From Candidatus Uhrbacteria bacterium (GTDB taxonomy: Bacteria > Patescibacteriota > Patescibacteriia > UBA9934 > GWF2-40-263), in the NCBI GenBank assembly GCA_016206085.1, contig JACQSF010000034.1, positions 26 to 64,025 on the forward strand: 64,000 bases of DNA, given 5' to 3'. Position numbers and translations under genes: made by a program. This document shows positions 3,123-26,038 of the stretch, in pieces. The notes beneath the pieces are model-generated. The model was not told the origin of the DNA and did not search any database. It saw only the letters and a program-made list of their open reading frames with translations. The stretch's first letter is position 1. The number at the start of each line of letters is the position of its first letter.

Positions 3123-3197
3123 CGGGCCATAGCGCAGGGGCAGCGCGCTTGCATGGGGTGCAAGAGGCCGTGGGTTCAAATCCCACTGGCCCGACCA
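3123..3197 (+). tRNA. tRNA-Pro (anticodon GGG), CCA encoded
   Basis: Manual cloverleaf: acceptor CGGGCCA/TGGCCCG, anticodon arm CTTGC-ATGGGGT-GCAAG, T-arm GTGGG-TTCAAAT-CCCAC, then ACCA. Confidence 0.85.
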
Positions 3198-3279: not shown

Positions 3280-3351
3280 CGGGCTGTAGCGCAGGGGTAG
3301 CGCGCTTCGTTCGGGACGAAGAGGCCGTGGGTTCAAATCCCGCCAGCCCGA
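3280..3351 (+). tRNA. tRNA-Pro (anticodon CGG), CCA not encoded
   Basis: Acceptor CGGGCTG/CAGCCCG, anticodon arm CTTCG-TTCGGGA-CGAAG, T-arm GTGGG-TTCAAAT-CCCGC, discriminator A. Confidence 0.85.
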
Positions 3352-5470: not shown

Positions 5471-8400
5471 TCAAGAGCACCCACTCGTGGCTCCACAATT
5501 GAGGCATTTGTAGCACGCGGCGTTGCGCACCATCATGCTGCCGCAGGTGTCACACGCAGGCGCATCGGACTGATTGTCGAATGTCTGTGTATGCACGCTG
5601 CGGAGCTCAAGTGGCTCTGTCTTCTTTGCTTCAAATAAGTTTGGCTGCTTCTCTGCTGTCTCCACCTTACCCACCTCCGCCACCTCTTCCACCTTCGCTA
5701 CCTCCTCAATCTCCTCTCCCCCATTGATTCCGACAGCCAGCTGGCTCTCACGTGGCAAAAACTTCAGCGCGAGCCAACGGAAGATGTAATCGGTTATGGA
5801 CTTGGCAATACGAATCTGCGGATTGTTCGTGTAGCCGGATGGTTCAAAACGCATGTGTACGAACTTGTTGACCAACACTTCCAGGGGCACCCCGTACTGA
5901 AGTCCGATCGAGATGGACGTGGCAAATGAGTCCATGAGTCCAGAAATCACCGAACCCTCTTTACTCATGGTCAAAAACAATTCTCCAGGCGTCCCGTCAT
6001 CATAGAGTCCCACCGTGATGTAACCCTCATGATTTCCAACCGCGAACTTGTGCGTAATAGCGCGACGCTCATCTGGAAGTCGACGTCGTCGCAATTTCTG
6101 ATCGTTCGCAACCTTGACCACCTCTACCACCTTATCCACCTCCTCCACCTTTTTGTCTTCATTTTGTTTCTTGGCGTCACTTTCTTTTGAAGTTGTGAGC
6201 GCCTGTTGACGCTTGGATCCGTCACGATAAATCGCAATAGCTTTAAGCCCGAGTTTCCATCCGGTCATGTACACATCCGCAATCTCTTTCACGGTTGCCT
6301 CGTGTGGCATGTTCACGGTTTTGGAAATGGCGCCAGAGATAAACGGCTGAACCGCCGCCATCATGTGCACATGACCCATGTAATGAATGGTGCGTGTTCC
6401 CTGCGCCGCTTTGAACGCACAGTCGAATACGCAAAGGTGTTCAGATTTCAGATGTGGTGCCCCCTCGATCGTATCTTTCTCTTGGATATACGCAAGGATA
6501 TCCGTGCGTTCACTATCACTGTATCCAAGTCGTGTAAGCGCTTCCGGAACAGTTTGATTGACGATCTTGAGCATACCGCCTCCCACAAGCCACTTGTACT
6601 TCACCAACGCAATGTCAGGTTCGATACCGGTCGTATCGCAGTCCATGAGAAAAGAAATAGTGCCGGTTGGGGCGATGACCGAAATCTGCGCGTTGCGCAA
6701 ACCAAACTTGCTTCCATGCTCCACAACGTTATCCCAGCTCTTACGTGCCTCAGTCAACAAATCCGCAGGGACTCCCTCCTGGGTGATCTGATAGGTTGCG
6801 TCTCGATGCATGCGCATCACTTCAAGGCAGGGTTCCTCGTTCGTTTTGTATCCAGCAAATGAACCAATTTTCTCGGCGATCTTCGCAGACTGGTAGTAAC
6901 AATGTCCGCTCTGAAGACTCGAAATCGCTGCGGCGAGATTTCGTCCCTCATCCGAATCGTAGGCCAACCCTCGACTCATCAACAACGCTCCCAGGTTTGC
7001 GTACCCGATTCCCAGTGGTCGGTAATCATGTGAGTTCTGCTCAATGGCCGGAGTAGGGTACACGCAGTTACTCACAATAATCTCCATGGCTGTGATAATG
7101 ATCTCGTTGGCTTTTTTAAACGCCTCGACATCAAAAATCGTCACACCGTTTTCATCGGGTTTGCGGAAACGCATGAGATTCAAGCTTGCAAGGTTGCACG
7201 CGGAGTCGTTCAAAAACATGTACTCCGAACAATTATGAATCAGAAGCCCGTTTGCTACAAAATGACTTGTACGCGGTTCCGTCAAATCATATACCTCTTC
7301 TATGCCCGCCTCGGTTAAGGACTCAAATTCATCGTAAAAATAATCCGTATACGCTCCCACTTCTTCATTCATTGTACGCAACTTTGCTCGTTTTGGACTC
7401 CCTGAAAGAAACCCTATAGCTCTCTCAAACTCGATGCGTGAATCACGGCTGATACGCAACGAATGCATTTGTTGAACGGGATATTCAGCAACGCCTCCTC
7501 GACCATTTGGCATCATCGTCTGAAATGTTTGTCTTCGATTCTCATATACTTTAGCCTTAATACCAAAACCAAGTAGAAGAAGTTGAACTTGTCGTAAAAG
7601 TAATACGCTGACTGAATCCAAACCAACATACTGCGATTTCTCGCCATAGTTGGCAACCGTCCCGTCAGCGCTAAACAACCCTCGCAAGAGAGCGGCCTGA
7701 GATTCCTTATCCAGCTCAAATATAGCATCTCTAAACTGCTTTTTGAGGGAACCTTGATCTACCAAGGCATATCTCTTAAGCGGCTCGACCACAGCTCGAC
7801 TGCTTGTTCCAATACGCACACCAGTTGGTGTATCTACCACAGAGCTCCATCGCGCACTACGCTGATCTGTGGCCATTTCTTGTTTGTACTCGTTTACTCG
7901 AGTGTTAAAGGATTGAAACATACCGTGCTCCTCCCTTCCTCCACTCACGAAAGCTATCTCTTGCTCCGATGTAAGACATCCATCGCCAACCGTCAATCCA
8001 ATCATTTCCGCAACCACTTCCTCAATATGAACGTTGCCAAAACCAGGCTGTTTGAGTTCAAGAAGATCACCGATTCGCAATTCAGATGCCGGAACATCCC
8101 CGCGATTCGCGGTCCAAACTTTATGATCCTCCGTTAATCTAAGTTGATAACCGCTCTTGGTACGAAGTTCAAAAATCGGTTTTATTCCAGTTGGAAAGAT
8201 ACGTGTCACATGGCTACTTTTTCCATCTGCTGCGATTACACGCGCATCTTTCCCAACCAATTCTCCAATACGTCTGTAGCCCGAATCAGTTGAAATAAGC
8301 GTGTCAGCGGTTACGCAAGGATTTGAAGCATAGATACGATCAGTATTCTTGCAGGTGTGCCAACGGTTGACGGTGGTATCGTACTGCATGCCCGGATCGC

Positions 8401-9856
8401 CACACTGCCAAGCCGCGTCTGACATCATGTTCATGAGCTCGCGTGCGTTGCGCGTCTGAACGGGTTCTCCTGTGGTCACGGCATGAGTCGTCCATGGTTC
8501 ATCATTCTCGACGGCCGACATAAAGCCATCGGTCACACGCACAGAATTATTGGCATTTTGAAAATAGATGCTGGCATATGCATCACCATCGATAGAAGAA
8601 TCGTAACCGGCATCAATGAGAGCCCATGCTTTCTTTTCTTCCTTGACTTTGCACATGATGAACTCATCGATATCCGGGTGATCAATGTCCAAGATAACCA
8701 TTTTTGCGGCACGACGAGTCTTTCCTCCACTCTTAATGACCCCCGCAAAGGCATCGAGTCCTTTCATGAAGGAAACGGGACCGGAGGCTTTTCCGTTGCT
8801 ACCGCCCAAGTACTCATGCCGTGAACGAATTTTTGAAAGATTAGAACCTGTTCCAGAACCACCCTTGAAAAGCATTCCTTCTGTGACGCAAAGGTTCAGG
8901 ATGGAACGCATGTCATCCTGCACGGAGTTAATAAAACAGGCGGAACACTGTTGTGGACGTGGAGTTCCAACATTAAACCAGACCGGAGAATTAAATGCCG
9001 CCATTTGATTCACAAGAATGTAATGAAGCTCGTCATCAAACGCCTGGGCGTCTTCCTGTGTTTGAAAATAACCGTCCTTGCGTCCCCAATTCGCGATGGT
9101 TTTCGCGACACGTCCAACAAGTTGCTTCACGGAATACTCACGATCTTCTTTTCCAATGGTTCCAAAAAAATACTTTGAGACAACAATGTTTGTTGCGGTT
9201 TGTGTCCAGGTCTTTGGAACCTCCACACCCTTTTGTTCAAACACGACCTTTCCCTTGGAATCCGTGATGGAAGCATCACGTGTTTCCCATTCAATCTCGT
9301 CGTAGGGGTGAACGTCAGGTTTGGTAAAATATCGACCGACAACAATCCCGTGACCATACACTTCTTCTCGCGCTTCTTGCTGCAATCGTCCTTTGAACGA
9401 GACGTACCGTTTGGCGACATGTGGAAGATTGTAATCAACCAACGTAACACAAACGAACTCACGCACATCCGCATAGGTCGGCGTGCTGTGCCCATCAAAC
9501 TGACGCGTCAATCGACTCACGACTTGCGAAACAATGCGAGCCACTAACGCCTCTTCTCTCATTCCCGATTCTTCCGCGGCTCGTTTAATGGATCCGTGGA
9601 GCTTCTGTATCTCAAACGGCTGCTCTTCTCCGTTGCGTTTTTGAATGCTTTTCACGGACGTCATAAACGTCCAGACAGCGTCTGAGATGGATCCGGTCAC
9701 AAGACTCGTAGATTGAGCCTTTTTCGTAGCATGGTCCGACATAGGGCGAGTAGGTCGAGACTGTTTAAGAAATGCGCGATCTTGCAACTTGCGGGGCCCC
9801 TCCACCGCCTCATCGTAGGATTTACCTACGCCTCGGCGGCTGGTTTCCCCGCGCAT
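5471..9856 (-). CDS. nrdJ: Class II (adenosylcobalamin-dependent) ribonucleotide reductase with N-terminal ATP-cone, C-terminal Zn-ribbon tail and one intein
   Basis: ATP-cone VKSIQKRNGEEQPFEIQKL. Extein junction YASNP|C...HN|CSEYMFLNDSACNLASLN restores the NPC..E...CNL active-site block. Tail CDTCGSMMVRNAACYKCLNCG. The true start may be M39 or M65. Confidence 0.9.
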   Translation of the reverse strand: MRGETSRRGVGKSYDEAVEGPRKLQDRAFLKQSRPTRPMSDHATKKAQSTSLVTGSISDAVWTFMTSVKSIQKRNGEEQPFEIQKLHGSIKRAAEESGMREEALVARIVSQVVSRLTRQFDGHSTPTYADVREFVCVTLVDYNLPHVAKRYVSFKGRLQQEAREEVYGHGIVVGRYFTKPDVHPYDEIEWETRDASITDSKGKVVFEQKGVEVPKTWTQTATNIVVSKYFFGTIGKEDREYSVKQLVGRVAKTIANWGRKDGYFQTQEDAQAFDDELHYILVNQMAAFNSPVWFNVGTPRPQQCSACFINSVQDDMRSILNLCVTEGMLFKGGSGTGSNLSKIRSRHEYLGGSNGKASGPVSFMKGLDAFAGVIKSGGKTRRAAKMVILDIDHPDIDEFIMCKVKEEKKAWALIDAGYDSSIDGDAYASIYFQNANNSVRVTDGFMSAVENDEPWTTHAVTTGEPVQTRNARELMNMMSDAAWQCGDPGMQYDTTVNRWHTCKNTDRIYASNPCVTADTLISTDSGYRRIGELVGKDARVIAADGKSSHVTRIFPTGIKPIFELRTKSGYQLRLTEDHKVWTANRGDVPASELRIGDLLELKQPGFGNVHIEEVVAEMIGLTVGDGCLTSEQEIAFVSGGREEHGMFQSFNTRVNEYKQEMATDQRSARWSSVVDTPTGVRIGTSSRAVVEPLKRYALVDQGSLKKQFRDAIFELDKESQAALLRGLFSADGTVANYGEKSQYVGLDSVSVLLLRQVQLLLLGFGIKAKVYENRRQTFQTMMPNGRGGVAEYPVQQMHSLRISRDSRIEFERAIGFLSGSPKRAKLRTMNEEVGAYTDYFYDEFESLTEAGIEEVYDLTEPRTSHFVANGLLIHNCSEYMFLNDSACNLASLNLMRFRKPDENGVTIFDVEAFKKANEIIITAMEIIVSNCVYPTPAIEQNSHDYRPLGIGYANLGALLMSRGLAYDSDEGRNLAAAISSLQSGHCYYQSAKIAEKIGSFAGYKTNEEPCLEVMRMHRDATYQITQEGVPADLLTEARKSWDNVVEHGSKFGLRNAQISVIAPTGTISFLMDCDTTGIEPDIALVKYKWLVGGGMLKIVNQTVPEALTRLGYSDSERTDILAYIQEKDTIEGAPHLKSEHLCVFDCAFKAAQGTRTIHYMGHVHMMAAVQPFISGAISKTVNMPHEATVKEIADVYMTGWKLGLKAIAIYRDGSKRQQALTTSKESDAKKQNEDKKVEEVDKVVEVVKVANDQKLRRRRLPDERRAITHKFAVGNHEGYITVGLYDDGTPGELFLTMSKEGSVISGLMDSFATSISIGLQYGVPLEVLVNKFVHMRFEPSGYTNNPQIRIAKSITDYIFRWLALKFLPRESQLAVGINGGEEIEEVAKVEEVAEVGKVETAEKQPNLFEAKKTEPLELRSVHTQTFDNQSDAPACDTCGSMMVRNAACYKCLNCGATSGCS
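7232..8317 (-). mobile_element. Intein (362 aa, aa 514-875) with LAGLIDADG homing-endonuclease domain, inserted at the catalytic NPC cysteine
   Basis: Starts CVTADTLI (TGC is rc of 8315-8317). Block B LTEDHKV. LAGLIDADG motifs IGLTVGDGCL and LLRGLFSADGTV. Ends VANGLLIHN (AAT is rc of 7232-7234), followed by Cys+1. Confidence 0.9.
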
Positions 9857-17461: not shown

Positions 17462-18772
17462 TTAGACGCTTCCTGCGGGAACGGCGCAACCACCGTCGTT
17501 GAGACCGCGCCATCCACCTTCGTTACAACGATCACAAATATCGCAGTTGTTGCAACCGTTGCATATCAGACAGATGTCGCACATGATGCAGGGATTGCAG
17601 AAGTTGCAGGAGCCGGCCGCTGCAAAGGATTCAGCTCGCAGACCTGACGCCTCGATCCCCCGCAGGAGCGCCAGATTGTAGGCGCAGCTGATTTCTGCGG
17701 GCTCGCTCAGCGTGCCGGTTGCCGACAAATTTTCAGCCCAGCAACCGCCACGACAGGCCCCGAGCGCGGGACAGCGGTGACAGCGTTCCGGAACCTCGCG
17801 GGTGTTGAAGAGCGCCCGGAGTTGGCTCCAGGAACCAGGGCCCTCTCCGTCCAGCGTCCGCAGTTCGTAGCCTTCCCAGTTGGACTGGCCTGTGAATCGG
17901 TGACAGGGGAAGATGCGCCCATGGATATCGATTCCCAGGAAAGAATGACAGGCTCCGCAGTGGTACCCATCACCCGCTGGTGGGTGCAGCAGCAGACGGG
18001 CGTAACTGTCGATGGGATGAAGCCTACTCAGACTAGCGAACTGGGTCAGACGAGCCTCCCCGATCAAGCGCGTCTGTTCCTGAACCACCAAGAGCAGATC
18101 CGAACTCCAGGTCTGACGATCGAAGGCTGGGAAGGCGGCAATCGTTGTGAAACCCAGAGATTGCAGATGACGCACGCCGTCAAACATCTGTCCGACTGTT
18201 GCCGGAGTGACGGTCATTCGCGCGCCACGCAATGCGCCGCGTTCACGCAAAATATCCACATGTTGCATCACCGTGCTGGAAGAACCACGCCCACCAGCGT
18301 ACGGCCGATTCCGGTCATGACTGACCGGACAACCGTCAACGGAACAGTGGAAGGCACCACCGGCCTTGAGCACACGCGTCGCGCGCTCGGGGGTCAGCAG
18401 GGTCAGGTTCGAAGTCATGCTCCAAGAGAAAGAAAGACCCTTGTTGGAGCAACGACGGCTTAGCTCACTGGCAAGGCGCAGCGCGTCATCAAGAGCAATC
18501 AAGGGCTCGCCACCCATAAAAGCTACGGTCAGCCCACCGTGCTCAGTGATGACTGGCCAGAGAACTTCCATCGTCCTGAGAACCGATGGAATGTCGACTC
18601 CTTTGCTTCCTGCCGGGCCCTTGTAGCAGTAGGCACAAGCCAGGTTGCAACGTTCAGTGACGTCGATGGTCAAAGCAAGCGAACTGTCGGACGTACCAAT
18701 GGGACTGACTTCAGGCATGGAGACTCCTTGAGAATCCAATCTTGATGCTAGGCCAATAATAGCCATTGTCAA
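17462..18772 (-). CDS. Radical SAM / SPASM-domain enzyme with a C-terminal (Cys-x-x)10 repeat tail
   Basis: CNLACAYC (CX3CX2C). SPASM: C-x14 with G-x4-C (CHSFLGIDIHGRIFPC), then CHRCPALGACRGGC, then ISC. Tail has Cys at aa 389, 392, ...416 (nt 17525-17608). Start is TTG 18772 or ATG 18766. Confidence 0.85.
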   Translation of the reverse strand: MTMAIIGLASRLDSQGVSMPEVSPIGTSDSSLALTIDVTERCNLACAYCYKGPAGSKGVDIPSVLRTMEVLWPVITEHGGLTVAFMGGEPLIALDDALRLASELSRRCSNKGLSFSWSMTSNLTLLTPERATRVLKAGGAFHCSVDGCPVSHDRNRPYAGGRGSSSTVMQHVDILRERGALRGARMTVTPATVGQMFDGVRHLQSLGFTTIAAFPAFDRQTWSSDLLLVVQEQTRLIGEARLTQFASLSRLHPIDSYARLLLHPPAGDGYHCGACHSFLGIDIHGRIFPCHRFTGQSNWEGYELRTLDGEGPGSWSQLRALFNTREVPERCHRCPALGACRGGCWAENLSATGTLSEPAEISCAYNLALLRGIEASGLRAESFAAAGSCNFCNPCIMCDICLICNGCNNCDICDRCNEGGWRGLNDGGCAVPAGSV

Positions 18773-19644: not shown

Positions 19645-19697
19645 CTTGAACCTTGACTTCTCATTTTTTAACGCTCAAAGTCGTAGGGAGGTGCGTG

Positions 19698-20138
19698 ATG
19701 ATCCATGAGTTCTTTACCCTTACGGTAAGCCGCTCGCTCTACCGGGTGAGTGATGAGCGCGACCAGAACGGTTGGCCAACGGTGGTCAAGATCGCGGATT
19801 CCGGGACAAGCAATTTCGGTCTTGGAAATCGGCTGGGTCGTGGTCGTTTCGTCGCCGTCACACCCGGCGGGATCGCTCTCTACGCCGCGAATACGGATTC
19901 ACAAGGTCATCCTCAATCTCCATATGAGGTGAGCACCCGTCATTGGGGCGGCACAACAAGCGCTGTCGTCGGTCTTTTTCTTGATGAGCATGAGGCGCGA
20001 GAGGCGTTCTTGGCCAAGTTCCTGAAGTCCTGCGACCCACGCTGGCATGCTCAGACTCGTGCGGTTCTCGCCGCCATCGAACATCACCCGGTCTTCATCC
20101 AGGTTCCCTTCCACGAACTTCTTCCCCCAGCTGCCTAA
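19698..20138 (+). CDS. Hypothetical protein (146 aa), GC-rich orphan
   Basis: GGGAGG lies 6 nt upstream of ATG 19698 (MIHEFFTL...). No recognised motif. Confidence 0.6.
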   Translation: MIHEFFTLTVSRSLYRVSDERDQNGWPTVVKIADSGTSNFGLGNRLGRGRFVAVTPGGIALYAANTDSQGHPQSPYEVSTRHWGGTTSAVVGLFLDEHEAREAFLAKFLKSCDPRWHAQTRAVLAAIEHHPVFIQVPFHELLPPAA

Positions 20139-20244: not shown

Positions 20245-20281
20245 GGGTACTTTTTTTCGCAGGTGAGAAAAATCGTCACCC
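20245..20281. repeat. 37-nt site containing the 18-nt core TTTCGCAGGTGAGAAAAA; partner of 20818-20855
   Basis: GGGTAC-TTTTTTTCGCAGGTGAGAAAAATC-GTCACCC. It overlaps the stop codon of the Cas2-like gene. Confidence 0.7.
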
Positions 20282-20896
20282 TTTTCTCTGGCCAATGTAG
20301 ACTTGTACCCACCTCTCAACCTTCGCCTTTTGAACAAAGGCAAGAACCTCTCCAGTTACATCCTTGTCTGTCTGCCAAACACTCTGCTGCACCTGTTCAA
20401 AACCGATTCGTTTCAAAAAATACCTTAAGCCATCTCTCCCGGAACCGGCATCCAAAGGGATGTCATACATAACTAAGCAAACAGAGCCGCTTGGAAGTTT
20501 GGGTCTTTCCTGGATCAATCTCCCCAGCAACTCCTCCCTGCCTTGATCTGTAAGTTCGAAAAGCAACTTCTTCTCTATTTTTTTCGTTTTGATGAATTTT
20601 TTTCGCCGGAGATACTTGAGTCGCTTGCGGAACGCCTGTTCTCGCTGGAAATGTTCCTCAGCTAGTTTGTGTTCGCCTTCGTAGCGATACTTCCGCCGTC
20701 TGGCCCACTGTTCGAACATCTCCGAAGCCTCAGTCGTTGCCCCGTCAATCCATCTCAGAAGATCTGTCACCGCCTCTCTTCCGGTAGGTTCGTTTTGATT
20801 CTTCTTCTCCTCCATATGGGATACATTTTTTCTCACCTGCGAAATTTTGTCACCCATTTTTGCACATGTCGGATGTCTTCTTTCACTTAACAACAT
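20276..20896 (-). CDS. Cas2-like / PaaX-C-like ferredoxin-fold protein with coiled-coil N-terminal extension; start uncertain
   Basis: C-terminal VCLVMYDIPLDAGSGRDGLRYFLKRIGFEQVQQSVWQT resembles the Cas2 core (LVxYDI...R..v.k.L...G..vQ.SVf). Alternative starts are M14, V21 and M28. Confidence 0.5.
   Translation of the reverse strand: MLLSERRHPTCAKMGDKISQVRKNVSHMEEKKNQNEPTGREAVTDLLRWIDGATTEASEMFEQWARRRKYRYEGEHKLAEEHFQREQAFRKRLKYLRRKKFIKTKKIEKKLLFELTDQGREELLGRLIQERPKLPSGSVCLVMYDIPLDAGSGRDGLRYFLKRIGFEQVQQSVWQTDKDVTGEVLAFVQKAKVERWVQVYIGQRKG
20818..20855. repeat. 38-nt site carrying the reverse complement of the 18-nt core
   Basis: GGGATAC-ATTTTTTCTCACCTGCGAAATTTT-GTCACCC. Positions 20827-20844 are the perfect reverse complement of 20255-20272. 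Confidence 0.7.
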
Positions 20897-21081: not shown

Positions 21082-21775
21082 TCAGTGTTCGGTGGTGAAT
21101 CGGAACGGGCCGGTGGCCGTGACGCGCAGGCGCCACGGGTACCGGCTCTCCTCGACCGTGGGGTCGATCCAGGACTCTCGGACGATCTCACTGGTGACGT
21201 GAACCCCACAGCGAGTGTACGCGATCTCATTGAGAATCCAGTCTGGCCTCCTATCGAAATGGAGGAATGACTGTACACCCAGGTGCCCACACGTGATGCG
21301 GGCTGTCGTCGTAGACCTCACCCTGGGCGATGCCCAACGCAAGCAGATCTTTCCAGACCCAGGCGTCGCCACAGAAGTCAGGGTCGATCTCGTGAGGATC
21401 AAACCACAATTCAGCAAGGCGAACGCGGATCCCTGGTGGATCCACAATGAGGAGCGGTTGAGGAAGCTCTGGTCGTCTTCTGAAAAACGACACAGCCCCC
21501 TCTGGTCCCCATGTCTGAATGAGGAACGGTTGCTCACCCAGGAACGATGCGAGAGACTTCCCGCAGAAGGGGTCACGAACACGACCACCTACGACGAGCG
21601 TCTCATCGAAGTCGATGAAGCGACATGCTGCTGCTATGCGGCCACGAATCTCCTCCGCGGTCAGGCCTCGCGGCCACTTGACCCGCGTAACCAAATCTTT
21701 GTCCGAGAGCACACGGCTCTCGGGTCTTTCCCGCACCATGTGCCCTCCTTTGTGGGACAAACAAAAATACCCCAT
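21082..21775 (-). pseudogene. GC-rich hypothetical gene split by a 1-nt frameshift (ORFs 21251..21775 and 21082..21588)
   Basis: Both ORFs look coding only in their non-overlapping parts. The frames must switch between about 21254 and 21300. Could be a sequencing error. Confidence 0.5.
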
Positions 21776-24288: not shown

Positions 24289-24789
24289 TTACCCCTTCTT
24301 GAGCATTTTTACAAGCTCAACCGCCTTCTTCACGATGGGAACCATATCAGGATAGCTTGAAATTTTCTCTACCTTTGACAGTGGTACCCACTTGGCTTCA
24401 TAGACATGCTCTCCGGGATCTGGACGAAGCTCGCTGCGTTCACCGGCCTCAAAAAGATAGTAGTGAATATCTTTATGGATAAGCTGACCTTTCTTGTGAA
24501 ATTTATCTCGGAACCAGATGTCGATCTTCCCTAAATAGTCCAAAAGACGAATTTCTTGGAGTCCAAGCTCCTCCAGTGTCTCCCGCGCAGCCGCTTCTTC
24601 AACATCTTCTCCCTCTTCAACGTGACCTTTTGGAAAAGTCCACTTCCCATACGAATCCTTCATCATCGCAAATGAAAGCGTCCCGCCTGATCGACGAAAC
24701 ACCATCCCTCCTGCGGAAAGCTCACGAGAAACGGGTTCCCTCTTCAATGGTTTACTTAATTTGCTCTGTTTGCCTTTCTTCAAATTCAT
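24289..24789 (-). CDS. Nudix hydrolase
   Basis: Start MNLKKGKQ with GGAGGA upstream. Nudix box PKGHVEEGEDVEEAAARETLEELGL. Confidence 0.8.
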   Translation of the reverse strand: MNLKKGKQSKLSKPLKREPVSRELSAGGMVFRRSGGTLSFAMMKDSYGKWTFPKGHVEEGEDVEEAAARETLEELGLQEIRLLDYLGKIDIWFRDKFHKKGQLIHKDIHYYLFEAGERSELRPDPGEHVYEAKWVPLSKVEKISSYPDMVPIVKKAVELVKMLKKG

Positions 24790-26038
24790 AGGTTCCTCCG
24801 AGAATTTCTCGTGCGGCAATATCTTGAGGATCGATACCTGCCTGATATTCTTCAACGGTGTACTCCACAACGACATCCGGAGCAATTCCCTCTTCGTTAA
24901 TAGATCGACCATTTGGGGTGTACCAAGCGGCCGTGGTGATCTTCACCGCCGAACCATCTGGCAGCTCACGATAATCCTGCACAGAGCCCTTCCCAAATGT
25001 CTGAGTTCCTACAATGGTGGCATAGCCATAATCCTGTAGAGCACCCGAAACAATCTCCGAAGCAGAGGCACTTCCCCCATTGACCAATACAACTGTTGGA
25101 ATCCCTTGAAGTCTTGGTGCAGAGACACCTGAAAACGAATGGACATCAGCTTGCGAACGCTCGATCACCACATCGTCATACCCCACCCACGCGGAAGCAA
25201 TATCAATAGCCGTTGTAAGAAGTCCGCCTGGATTTCCACGCAAATCAAGAATAATTCCTGTCACACCAGAGGAAAGAGCTTCCTGGATCGCTTGGGAGAA
25301 AAGCTCAGATGTATCGTGATTAAAGGTCGAAATGGAAATGGTCATGACACGTTGGTCGTCCACACTCCATTTCACAGAATCGATAACAATCTTGTCGCGC
25401 GTGATGGGGTATTCCGTAATTCCATCGACTCCCTCGCGCGCAATTGTAAGCACAACTTGTGTTCCCTTTTCACCGCGAATCAGAGACACGGCTTTTTCGA
25501 CACTCATCCCCGTGGTCTCGACCCCATCGATCAGCACAATCCAATCTCCTGGTAGGAGTCCAGCTTGGTCGGCAGGCAACCCATCAAGCGGTGAGACAAT
25601 CTGTAAACGATCGTCTTTGATACCAATCTCCGCACCGATCCCTTCAAAGGAACCTTCAAGACTCGCATTAAATTCCTCTGCCTCTTGCGGATCAAAATAC
25701 ACTGAGTAGGGATCATTCAAACCCGAAAGAAGCCCCTTAAGGGAACCATAGTAGAGATCAACATCTGAGACTGGTTGACGGTAGAACTCTTCTTTGACAA
25801 GGTTCCAGATGTCCCAAAATTGCTGGAAGTCGACATCCTGGGTAAGATAGTTGGGAATTTCGCCATCACCAATGAGCTCCCCTTCTCCTTCTGGAACAAC
25901 GGAAGCCACACCTCGCGCTCGACCAACATAAAACCCGAAACTGAAGGCCACAATCACAAGGAGGATAACACACAGGAAGAAAAGCGAACGGGGAGCTGGA
26001 CGCGAAAGTTTCACCATAGATGTGTACAGGATATACAA
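24752..26038 (-). CDS. ctpA: S41 C-terminal processing peptidase with PDZ domain
   Basis: N-terminal TM, PDZ (GDWIVLIDG), LDLRGNPGGLL, VLVNGGSASASEI. Confidence 0.85.
   Translation of the reverse strand: MYILYTSMVKLSRPAPRSLFFLCVILLVIVAFSFGFYVGRARGVASVVPEGEGELIGDGEIPNYLTQDVDFQQFWDIWNLVKEEFYRQPVSDVDLYYGSLKGLLSGLNDPYSVYFDPQEAEEFNASLEGSFEGIGAEIGIKDDRLQIVSPLDGLPADQAGLLPGDWIVLIDGVETTGMSVEKAVSLIRGEKGTQVVLTIAREGVDGITEYPITRDKIVIDSVKWSVDDQRVMTISISTFNHDTSELFSQAIQEALSSGVTGIILDLRGNPGGLLTTAIDIASAWVGYDDVVIERSQADVHSFSGVSAPRLQGIPTVVLVNGGSASASEIVSGALQDYGYATIVGTQTFGKGSVQDYRELPDGSAVKITTAAWYTPNGRSINEEGIAPDVVVEYTVEEYQAGIDPQDIAAREILGGTYEFEERQTEQIK

Follow-up and report, generated by a model that had tools for sequence, protein, structure and literature searches.

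A radical SAM/SPASM enzyme of a Candidatus Uhrbacteria bacterium with a C-terminal cysteine-repeat tail that may be its own fused substrate

QhpD forms thioethers between Cys and the side chains of Asp or Glu in a polypeptide that is not of the classical leader-core type, its substrate QhpC being a protein subunit and not a leader-containing peptide, and Cys-Asn links are known from NxxcB. CteB, the SCIFF maturase of the Tte1186 type, has an N-terminal RRE (recognition element of RiPPs, peptides made by the ribosome and modified after translation) and acts on a separate peptide of 45 residues with six Cys, and in the CXXX-repeat system (TIGR04115/TIGR04117) the substrate is a periodic Cys repeat encoded by a separate small gene with a leader. 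In the freyrasin system PapB acts on PapA, in which Cys...Asp is repeated in six C-X3-D/E motifs; PapB links Cys to Asp or Glu and accepts C-Xn-D with n = 0-6 (PMC9413430), and it forms nested as well as in-line rings and still cross-links in vitro when the RRE or the leader is absent (PMC9413430, PMC12715619). In the borosins of the OphMA type the modifying enzyme carries its own core peptide as a C-terminal fusion (bioRxiv 10.1101/2021.12.24.474128, PMC8429565). Here we describe a gene for a radical SAM (S-adenosylmethionine)/SPASM protein that carries a periodic Cys repeat at its own C-terminus. The gene lies in a stretch of 64,000 nucleotides from a Candidatus Uhrbacteria bacterium (assembly GCA_016206085.1, contig JACQSF010000034.1, positions 26 to 64,025 of the forward strand), and this whole stretch is called the window in this text. 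In the open reading frame (ORF) listing of the window the longest frame at this place, 436 aa from a TTG start, is found at 17462..18772 on the minus strand, and residue numbers follow this frame unless stated otherwise. An earlier annotation made from the letters of the window, called here the sequence-only reading, had offered two readings of the tail, a covalently fused core peptide or a multi-cluster or metal-binding appendage, and the comparative evidence presented below favors the former.

When the protein was compared with the curated families of NCBIfam, the top family was the PapB ranthipeptide maturase NF047865, the whole 330-position profile of which was covered, at 188.7 bits versus a cut-off of 340. 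It was followed by the nif11-type, QhpD, CXXX-repeat and SCIFF maturases, and the families behind PapB are mostly thioether formers on Cys-rich peptides. The same order was obtained with six relatives, whose PapB scores were 167-196 bits. The protein shares with PapB the combination of a radical SAM core and a seven-Cys SPASM domain, and its period-3 tail, with D or N at positions +1 and +4 of the Cys, resembles the repeated Cys...Asp of PapA. It differs from the PapB system in that its score is below the cut-off, it has no N-terminal RRE, there is neither a leader nor a separate leader-bearing precursor gene, and the repeat is fused to the enzyme; moreover, in the tail Asn is as common as Asp and the period is 3 versus about 6 in PapA. 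The QhpD family (TIGR03906) is the third-best curated match at 113.9 bits versus 453, and the likeness extends to a substrate that is not a leader-core peptide, but QhpC belongs as a subunit of its own to a defined enzyme with a conserved operon whereas the genes found here are those of LOG, DUF7282, L28 and HflX proteins and no qhp genes. The CXXX-repeat maturase family (TIGR04115) scored 91.8 bits versus 350 and the gene has no adjoining target gene; what is common to both systems is the periodic Cys repeat, but the residues between the Cys are rich in G, S and T in the CXXX targets and rich in D and N here. The SCIFF maturase family (TIGR03974) scored 83 versus a cut-off of 425. With the borosins only the fused-core logic, which needs no leader or RRE, is shared, since the borosin enzyme is a SAM-dependent N-methyltransferase of unrelated chemistry without homology to this protein; the architecture of an enzyme with a fused repeat is present clade-wide here, and self-modification would be the corresponding step.

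The catalytic part of the protein has all the elements of a SPASM-type radical SAM enzyme. PF04055 was matched above its gathering score, and the canonical CX3CX2C motif (CNLACAYC, C42-x3-C46-x2-C49, nt 18626-18649) recognized in the sequence-only reading is invariant or nearly so in family alignments. TIGR04085 was matched well above its cut-off and exactly seven SPASM Cys in the arrangement CX9-15GX4C...CX2CX5CX3C...C are invariant in a 23-sequence family alignment, namely C272, C290, C331, C334, C340, C344 and C363; the seven-Cys signature proposed earlier therefore stands except for its first member, because the family-invariant first Cys is C272 and not C275. In the SPASM subfamily these Cys serve two auxiliary [4Fe-4S] clusters, and exactly seven would, by analogy with CteB, fit an open site for a substrate Cys at auxiliary cluster I. 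The core was modeled by AlphaFold2 with a predicted local distance difference test score (pLDDT) above 90 and has a CteB/anSME-like fold. The nearest solved structure was CteB and then anSME, both by sequence (E of 1e-13 for CteB) and by fold (Foldseek E of 3e-18 and a template modeling score of 0.68 for CteB against the AlphaFold model). The absence of an N-terminal RRE/PqqD-like domain, which had been argued from the position of the radical SAM motif, is upheld because the alignment with CteB begins only at CteB residue 94, past its leader-binding RRE, and the RRE of PapB comprises residues 1-86 (PMC12715619). The radical SAM motif is already at aa 24 of the 418-aa protein that results from the start codon assigned below, and the nine loci examined have no neighboring gene for such a domain in common. 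Judged by its sequence, the protein is an RRE-less member of the thioether-forming SPASM neighborhood that belongs to no curated family. A defense-system function was considered and rejected, as PADLOC gave only generic viperin matches to the N-terminal radical SAM core.

In the tail of this protein ten Cys follow each other at a strict spacing of three residues (aa 389, 392 and so on to 416), eight of the ten are directly followed by N or D, and one more Cys, C429 (nt 17486-17488), lies near the end; these features are as the sequence-only reading had described them. In the AlphaFold2 model helices were found at residues 342-358 and 362-368 (418-aa numbering) and pLDDT was below 50 from residue 367 onward, and thus the tail is predicted to be disordered. 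The first Cys of the repeat is part of a G-[S/A]-C junction that is common to this protein and to its homologues P0002, P0003 and P0005-P0008. The ending GLDDGCAAPAGST is shared with P0003, and the pattern GL(N/D)DGGCA(V/A)PAGS(V/T) is found in P0003 and in P0001, the NCBI version of the identical protein (403 aa, 'SPASM domain-containing protein', Candidatus Uhrbacteria bacterium). No Pfam or NCBIfam domain was found in the tail, NCBIfam scans with three tails alone gave no matches, and the ferredoxin-type motif CX2CX2CX3CP is absent from it. At the DNA level TGC and TGT codons are mixed in the tail, which is not a simple tandem repeat. That the tail is made as a separate peptide from an internal start was considered and rejected, as there is no in-frame ATG, GTG or TTG in the linker of this gene.

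A Cys-rich tail is found at the C-terminus of every one of the seven closest homologues (34-71% identity), and the same tail is present in P0002, P0003 and P0004 (71%, 65% and 52% identity), which come from independent assemblies. When 1.84 billion representative proteins were searched, another group at a greater distance (25-31% identity) came to light in which the tails are longer still. When a neighbor-joining tree of 97 catalytic cores was built, the tail-bearing proteins formed one clade of 25-72% identity in which about 24 of 27 members have the tail. Outside this clade the repeat tail was not found in any protein of the tree, and the outsiders with at least six C-terminal Cys were double radical SAM fusions or had long Cys-sparse extensions. 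In the 23 tails used for composition statistics Cys makes up 20% of the residues versus 4% in the cores, the spacing from one Cys to the next is 3 in 53% and 4 in 22%, the number of Cys per tail is 7-29 and the length of the tail is roughly 35-160 residues. The residue that directly follows a Cys is D, E, N or Q in 55-72%, irrespective of whether the spacing is 3 or 4, versus 11-25% at the other positions between the Cys. D and N are preferred in subclade A, to which this protein belongs, and E, Q and D in subclade B. In the alignment of subclade A the Cys columns are invariant and the residues between them vary, and in P0007 a module IPVSGEASC[IV]xxDxCxVCDCS is present in two copies. This pattern is best read as the mark of selection for a periodic Cys-acceptor rule and not for a fold, and the varying number of Cys and length of the tail are as would be expected for core peptides. 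A fixed extra set of Fe-S ligands is unlikely because the number of Cys ranges so widely and their spacing is variable; nor do the missing domain matches and the low pLDDT describe a fixed Fe-S or ferredoxin-like domain. The family is rare. The ten subclade-B representatives that were looked up were all singleton clusters, and only one close relative, at the P0007 locus, was found among 185,579 GTDB species genomes, the other 79 GTDB loci belonging to a different, RRE-bearing family without tails. Only two distant matches were obtained among viral contigs, with no sign of a phage origin.

Homologues in which the repeat is separate or absent, a check proposed together with the sequence-only reading, were found, and tail-less relatives do lie beside separate Cys-repeat proteins or peptides. 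Enzymes of the P0009 type (29-32% identity) are RRE-less too and have PapB as the top match at 242 bits. They consistently have on the same strand, 0-2 kb upstream, a gene for a Cys-repeat protein of 160-290 aa with a twin-arginine signal (SRRxF[VI]R), as in loci L097 (6951-7685 and 7794-9092), L091 (7005-7703 and 7743-9101) and L089 (6897-7757 and 7761-9131) among loci L089-L105. These partner proteins have 15-31 Cys with a period of about 6 (C-x5-C), and the residue two positions before the Cys is N in 63% and D in 19%. No NCBIfam model matched them, and loci L089-L105 look like an uncurated two-gene system. The C-[D/N]-x-C of the period-3 tail contains the [N/D]-x-C unit of these partners, but the partners are separate proteins with an export signal and a longer period, and are unfused. 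For the CXXX-repeat-type enzymes (23-27% identity) at L150, L152, L153 and L164, the gene directly downstream is a small ORF that encodes a leader and a core of CxxxC repeats, and with one of these small ORFs a weak match was obtained to TIGR04117, 'Cys-Xaa-Xaa-Xaa repeat radical SAM target protein' (E of 1.3e-3). Thus, in this region of the radical SAM tree the enzymes have periodic Cys repeats as their neighbors. The third kind of relative, P0044, is a tail-less member inside the tail clade, and its gene belongs to a cluster of the classical peptide-modifying type, which also encodes a discrete PqqD together with an M16 peptidase and a transglutaminase-like peptidase (L166, 3751-9518). Enzymes with a fused repeat lack recognition machinery, which is present at the locus of P0044, the only tail-less member for which the locus was examined. 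P0044 itself consists of an N-terminal ScmC/HprK-like domain fused to the radical SAM/SPASM core, and NTP_transf_5, Transglut_core3 and Peptidase_M16 domains are encoded in its cluster.

These observations lead to the question of what the tail is for. We lean towards the view that it is a covalently fused substrate which the enzyme cross-links by thioethers from Cys to Asp or Asn. This reading is favored because the tail defines a clade, is hypervariable, follows the C-[D/E/N/Q] rule and is predicted to be disordered, because relatives have separate Cys-repeat partners, and because the tail-less P0044 comes with a PqqD. By analogy, the known chemistry of PapB fits it. The whole gene would then be a self-contained module, a PapB/CteB-like radical SAM/SPASM thioether synthase that brings its own substrate as a disordered C-terminal tail. 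In the mechanism that we envisage, the [4Fe-4S] cluster held by C42, C46 and C49 would cleave SAM to give the 5'-deoxyadenosyl radical, which would take a hydrogen from a side-chain carbon of the residue beside a tail Cys, Asp or Asn here and Glu or Gln in subclade B. The sulfur of this Cys, which as in CteB would probably occupy the open site of auxiliary cluster I, would capture the carbon radical to form the thioether, and iteration of this reaction along the (C-[D/N]-x)n track would give a densely cross-linked peptide. The covalent tether would replace recognition of a leader peptide by an RRE, the modification could take place in cis or between two enzyme molecules, and the product could either be freed by a protease near the G-[S/A]-C junction or be left attached. 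We infer the thioether chemistry, the acceptor residues, the action in cis or in trans and the release of a product from the comparisons described above.

Several points weigh against a fused substrate. We infer thioether formation in the tail from homology and composition alone, and as every curated family score is far under its cut-off, that of PapB included, the reaction could be a different one. No protease or exporter was associated with the gene at the loci examined, so that a product may or may not be released. In the model the first Cys of the tail follow the last helix by only a few residues, and these Cys may fall short of the active site in cis. The neighbor-joining tree was computed without bootstrap and has no support values, and no precursor for the P0044 cluster was found among the small ORFs of L166, a high-GC locus. 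Lastly, a Cys-rich, disordered and hypervariable tail also fits a metal-binding segment resembling an apo-metallothionein.

This last point is the basis of the alternative that survives best, though we regard it as unlikely, in which the tail is a metallothionein-like reservoir of metal or Fe-S clusters or a thiol buffer. Its Cys would chelate Fe, Zn or Cu or build labile Fe-S clusters and so supply or protect the three catalytic clusters in a host with reduced Fe-S assembly, and the true substrate would be elsewhere. The Cys content of 20% in CxxC and CxxxC units agrees with it, low AlphaFold2 confidence would be expected of an apo metal-binding segment, the lack of a protease or exporter for product release at the loci examined speaks for it, and hypervariable tails rich in His or Cys on metallochaperones are a precedent. 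However, 7-29 Cys with wide variation in spacing are a poor fit to a defined cluster site, and the missing CX2CX2CX3CP motif and Pfam or NCBIfam matches speak against it. The preference for D, E, N and Q is confined to the position after the Cys, which thiolate chelation does not explain and which matches the acceptors of PapB, QhpD and NxxcB. In addition, no other substrate gene was conserved beside the enzyme at the nine loci examined, and related enzymes neighbor Cys-repeat proteins. A somewhat less probable alternative is that the tail is modified but never released, and that it serves as a structural or regulatory element, an autoinhibitory pseudo-substrate or a protease-resistant knot in the manner of QhpC. 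The rank of QhpD among the curated matches points in this direction, as do the lack of a dedicated protease or transporter at any locus examined and the distal ending kept between P0001 and P0003. On the other hand, the hypervariable length and the duplicated module of P0007 agree better with diversifying selection on a product than with a structural element, cleavage might occur at the conserved G-[S/A]-C junction, and no second function of the catalytic domain is apparent. The idea that the tail is a low-complexity extension without function, or that it arose as an artefact of annotation or assembly such as a frameshift or read-through, is highly improbable and effectively refuted, for although this exact protein is found on a single contig (NCBI protein look-up), tails are present in many independent assemblies down to 25% identity with their Cys columns and position-specific composition rule kept, and the mixed TGC and TGT codons are not those of a simple tandem repeat.

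If the tail is a fused substrate, the chemistry would be of a known type and the arrangement, in which a SPASM thioether maturase carries its substrate in the same chain, appears undescribed in the literature searched. The literature search, outside of which subscription-only papers fell, gave no description of a Cys-repeat tail fused to a radical SAM/SPASM enzyme, and this agrees with the sequence-only reading, which knew of no radical SAM enzyme with a periodic CXX tail. Likewise, no model in the curated NCBIfam (June 2026 release) captures the tail clade. It is quite possible, though we stop short of calling it probable, that a core fused to its own maturase is met here for the first time in a radical SAM RiPP-like system, as a one-gene module without leader and RRE that yields a (Cys-[Asp/Asn]-x)n peptide dense in thioether cross-links and moves horizontally among bacteria of the Candidate Phyla Radiation (CPR, Patescibacteria) and other uncultured bacteria. 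If confirmed, this would be notable for RiPP biology, as genome mining for RiPPs by precursor gene, leader and RRE would systematically miss such a class. It would also extend the logic of the enzyme-fused core, so far that of the borosin methyltransferases, to radical SAM thioether chemistry, provide a minimal one-gene system for leader-independent, iterative thioether formation and a compact scaffold for poly-thioether peptides, and add a natural-product-like capability to very small CPR genomes.

The features of the gene are collected in Table 1. The start is probably the ATG at 18718, which is M19 of the 436-aa ORF and gives a product of 418 aa, because there is a Shine-Dalgarno sequence AAGGAG 5 nt upstream and because the N-terminus of this product, MPEVSP..., agrees with those of the homologues P0002 and P0003. 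A promoter-like site lies 5' of the gene, which appears to form a transcription unit by itself; this site is a consensus match only, and CPR promoters are uncharacterized. Translational coupling through a TTGA overlap to the upstream gene for a membrane-anchored DUF7282 protein, which had been proposed earlier, is not supported because the TTGA is part of this promoter-like site and the gene has its own AAGGAG. The DUF7282 protein was also rejected as a partner of the enzyme, since it is absent at all homologous loci and the radical SAM gene has its own Shine-Dalgarno sequence and promoter-like site.

Table 1. Coordinates of the gene and its parts in the window (residue numbers of the 436-aa ORF)
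Feature	Position	Strand	Basis
Whole gene as re-annotated, radical SAM/SPASM protein with Cys-repeat tail, 418 aa	17462..18718	-	AAGGAG; N-termini of homologues
Promoter-like site TTGACA-16 nt-TAGCAT, 5' of the gene	18745..18772	-	Consensus scan, 10/12 matches
Shine-Dalgarno sequence AAGGAG, 5 nt before ATG 18718	18724..18729	-	Direct sequence reading
Radical SAM core, aa 38-181	18230..18661	-	PF04055, 45.6 bits versus 29.5; pLDDT >90
SPASM domain, aa 272-363	17684..17959	-	TIGR04085, 45.3 bits versus cut-off 27
Terminal SPASM helices and short linker, aa 364-388, ending A-A-A-G-S before the first tail Cys	17609..17683	-	AlphaFold2 helices
(Cys-[Asn/Asp/x]-x)10 repeat CNFCNPCIMCDICLICNGCNNCDICDRC, aa 389-416, candidate fused substrate	17525..17608	-	Exact period of 3
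Distal tail NEGGWRGLNDGGCAVPAGSV, aa 417-436, last Cys C429	17465..17524	-	Sequence; stop codon 17462-17464

The GC content of the gene is 0.590 versus 0.508 for the window (z of 3.65). A GC content this high is reached by only 0.5% of windows of equal size, and in tetranucleotide distance the gene ranks first among all windows. These sliding-window computations bear out the description of the gene as a GC-rich one-gene islet. At the locus of the closest homologue the contrast is similar (0.603 versus 0.527), and the islet suggests, on compositional grounds, that the gene was acquired horizontally. No convincing flanking direct repeats, tRNA or integration scars were found around it. As had been stated earlier, there is no small precursor ORF in the flanks, none of the ORFs there being Cys-rich, and when the whole window was scanned in all six frames for (C-x2-3)n the tail itself was the sole match. 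When nine loci from both subclades were examined, the neighbors were found to be entirely different at each, several of the loci were in mobile or variable regions near integrases, HicAB, Fic or TrwB, and there was no common RRE/PqqD protein, protease or exporter. At one of the loci with a tail-bearing enzyme (L088, on a 124-kb contig of 30% GC) a 66-aa ORF in which the CxxCxGxG motif of DnaJ-type zinc fingers occurs twice is located 1.2 kb upstream of the radical SAM gene (6446-6646, plus strand); it is probably unrelated.

The neighbors of the gene in the window are housekeeping genes. They include those for an intein-containing class II ribonucleotide reductase, a LOG-family protein and an S41 peptidase, and ribosomal protein L28, HflX and HU were identified by eye from the translations. 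The S41 C-terminal-processing peptidase (PDZ and Peptidase_S41 domains; 24752-26038, minus strand) is of a generic housekeeping kind and lies 6 kb from the radical SAM gene; to call it the nearest candidate for trimming the tail is purely speculative. The ribonucleotide reductase (5471-9856, minus strand) is a B12-dependent protein of 1461 aa with ATP-cone and TSCPD domains, and its intein is of the LAGLIDADG homing-endonuclease type. Two ORFs of 161 and 174 aa (19653-20138, plus strand, and 21251-21775, minus strand) with a GC content of 0.56-0.58 versus 0.51 had no match in Pfam, PHROGs or PADLOC and are maybe further foreign genes. Between them a 206-aa protein (20276-20896, minus strand) has a C-terminal PaaX_M (Cas2-like) domain with weak Cas2 matches in PADLOC. 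A second GC-rich stretch (at least 0.57) occupies positions 1-1658 of the window, and two adjacent tRNA genes are found at 3123-3194 and 3280-3351.

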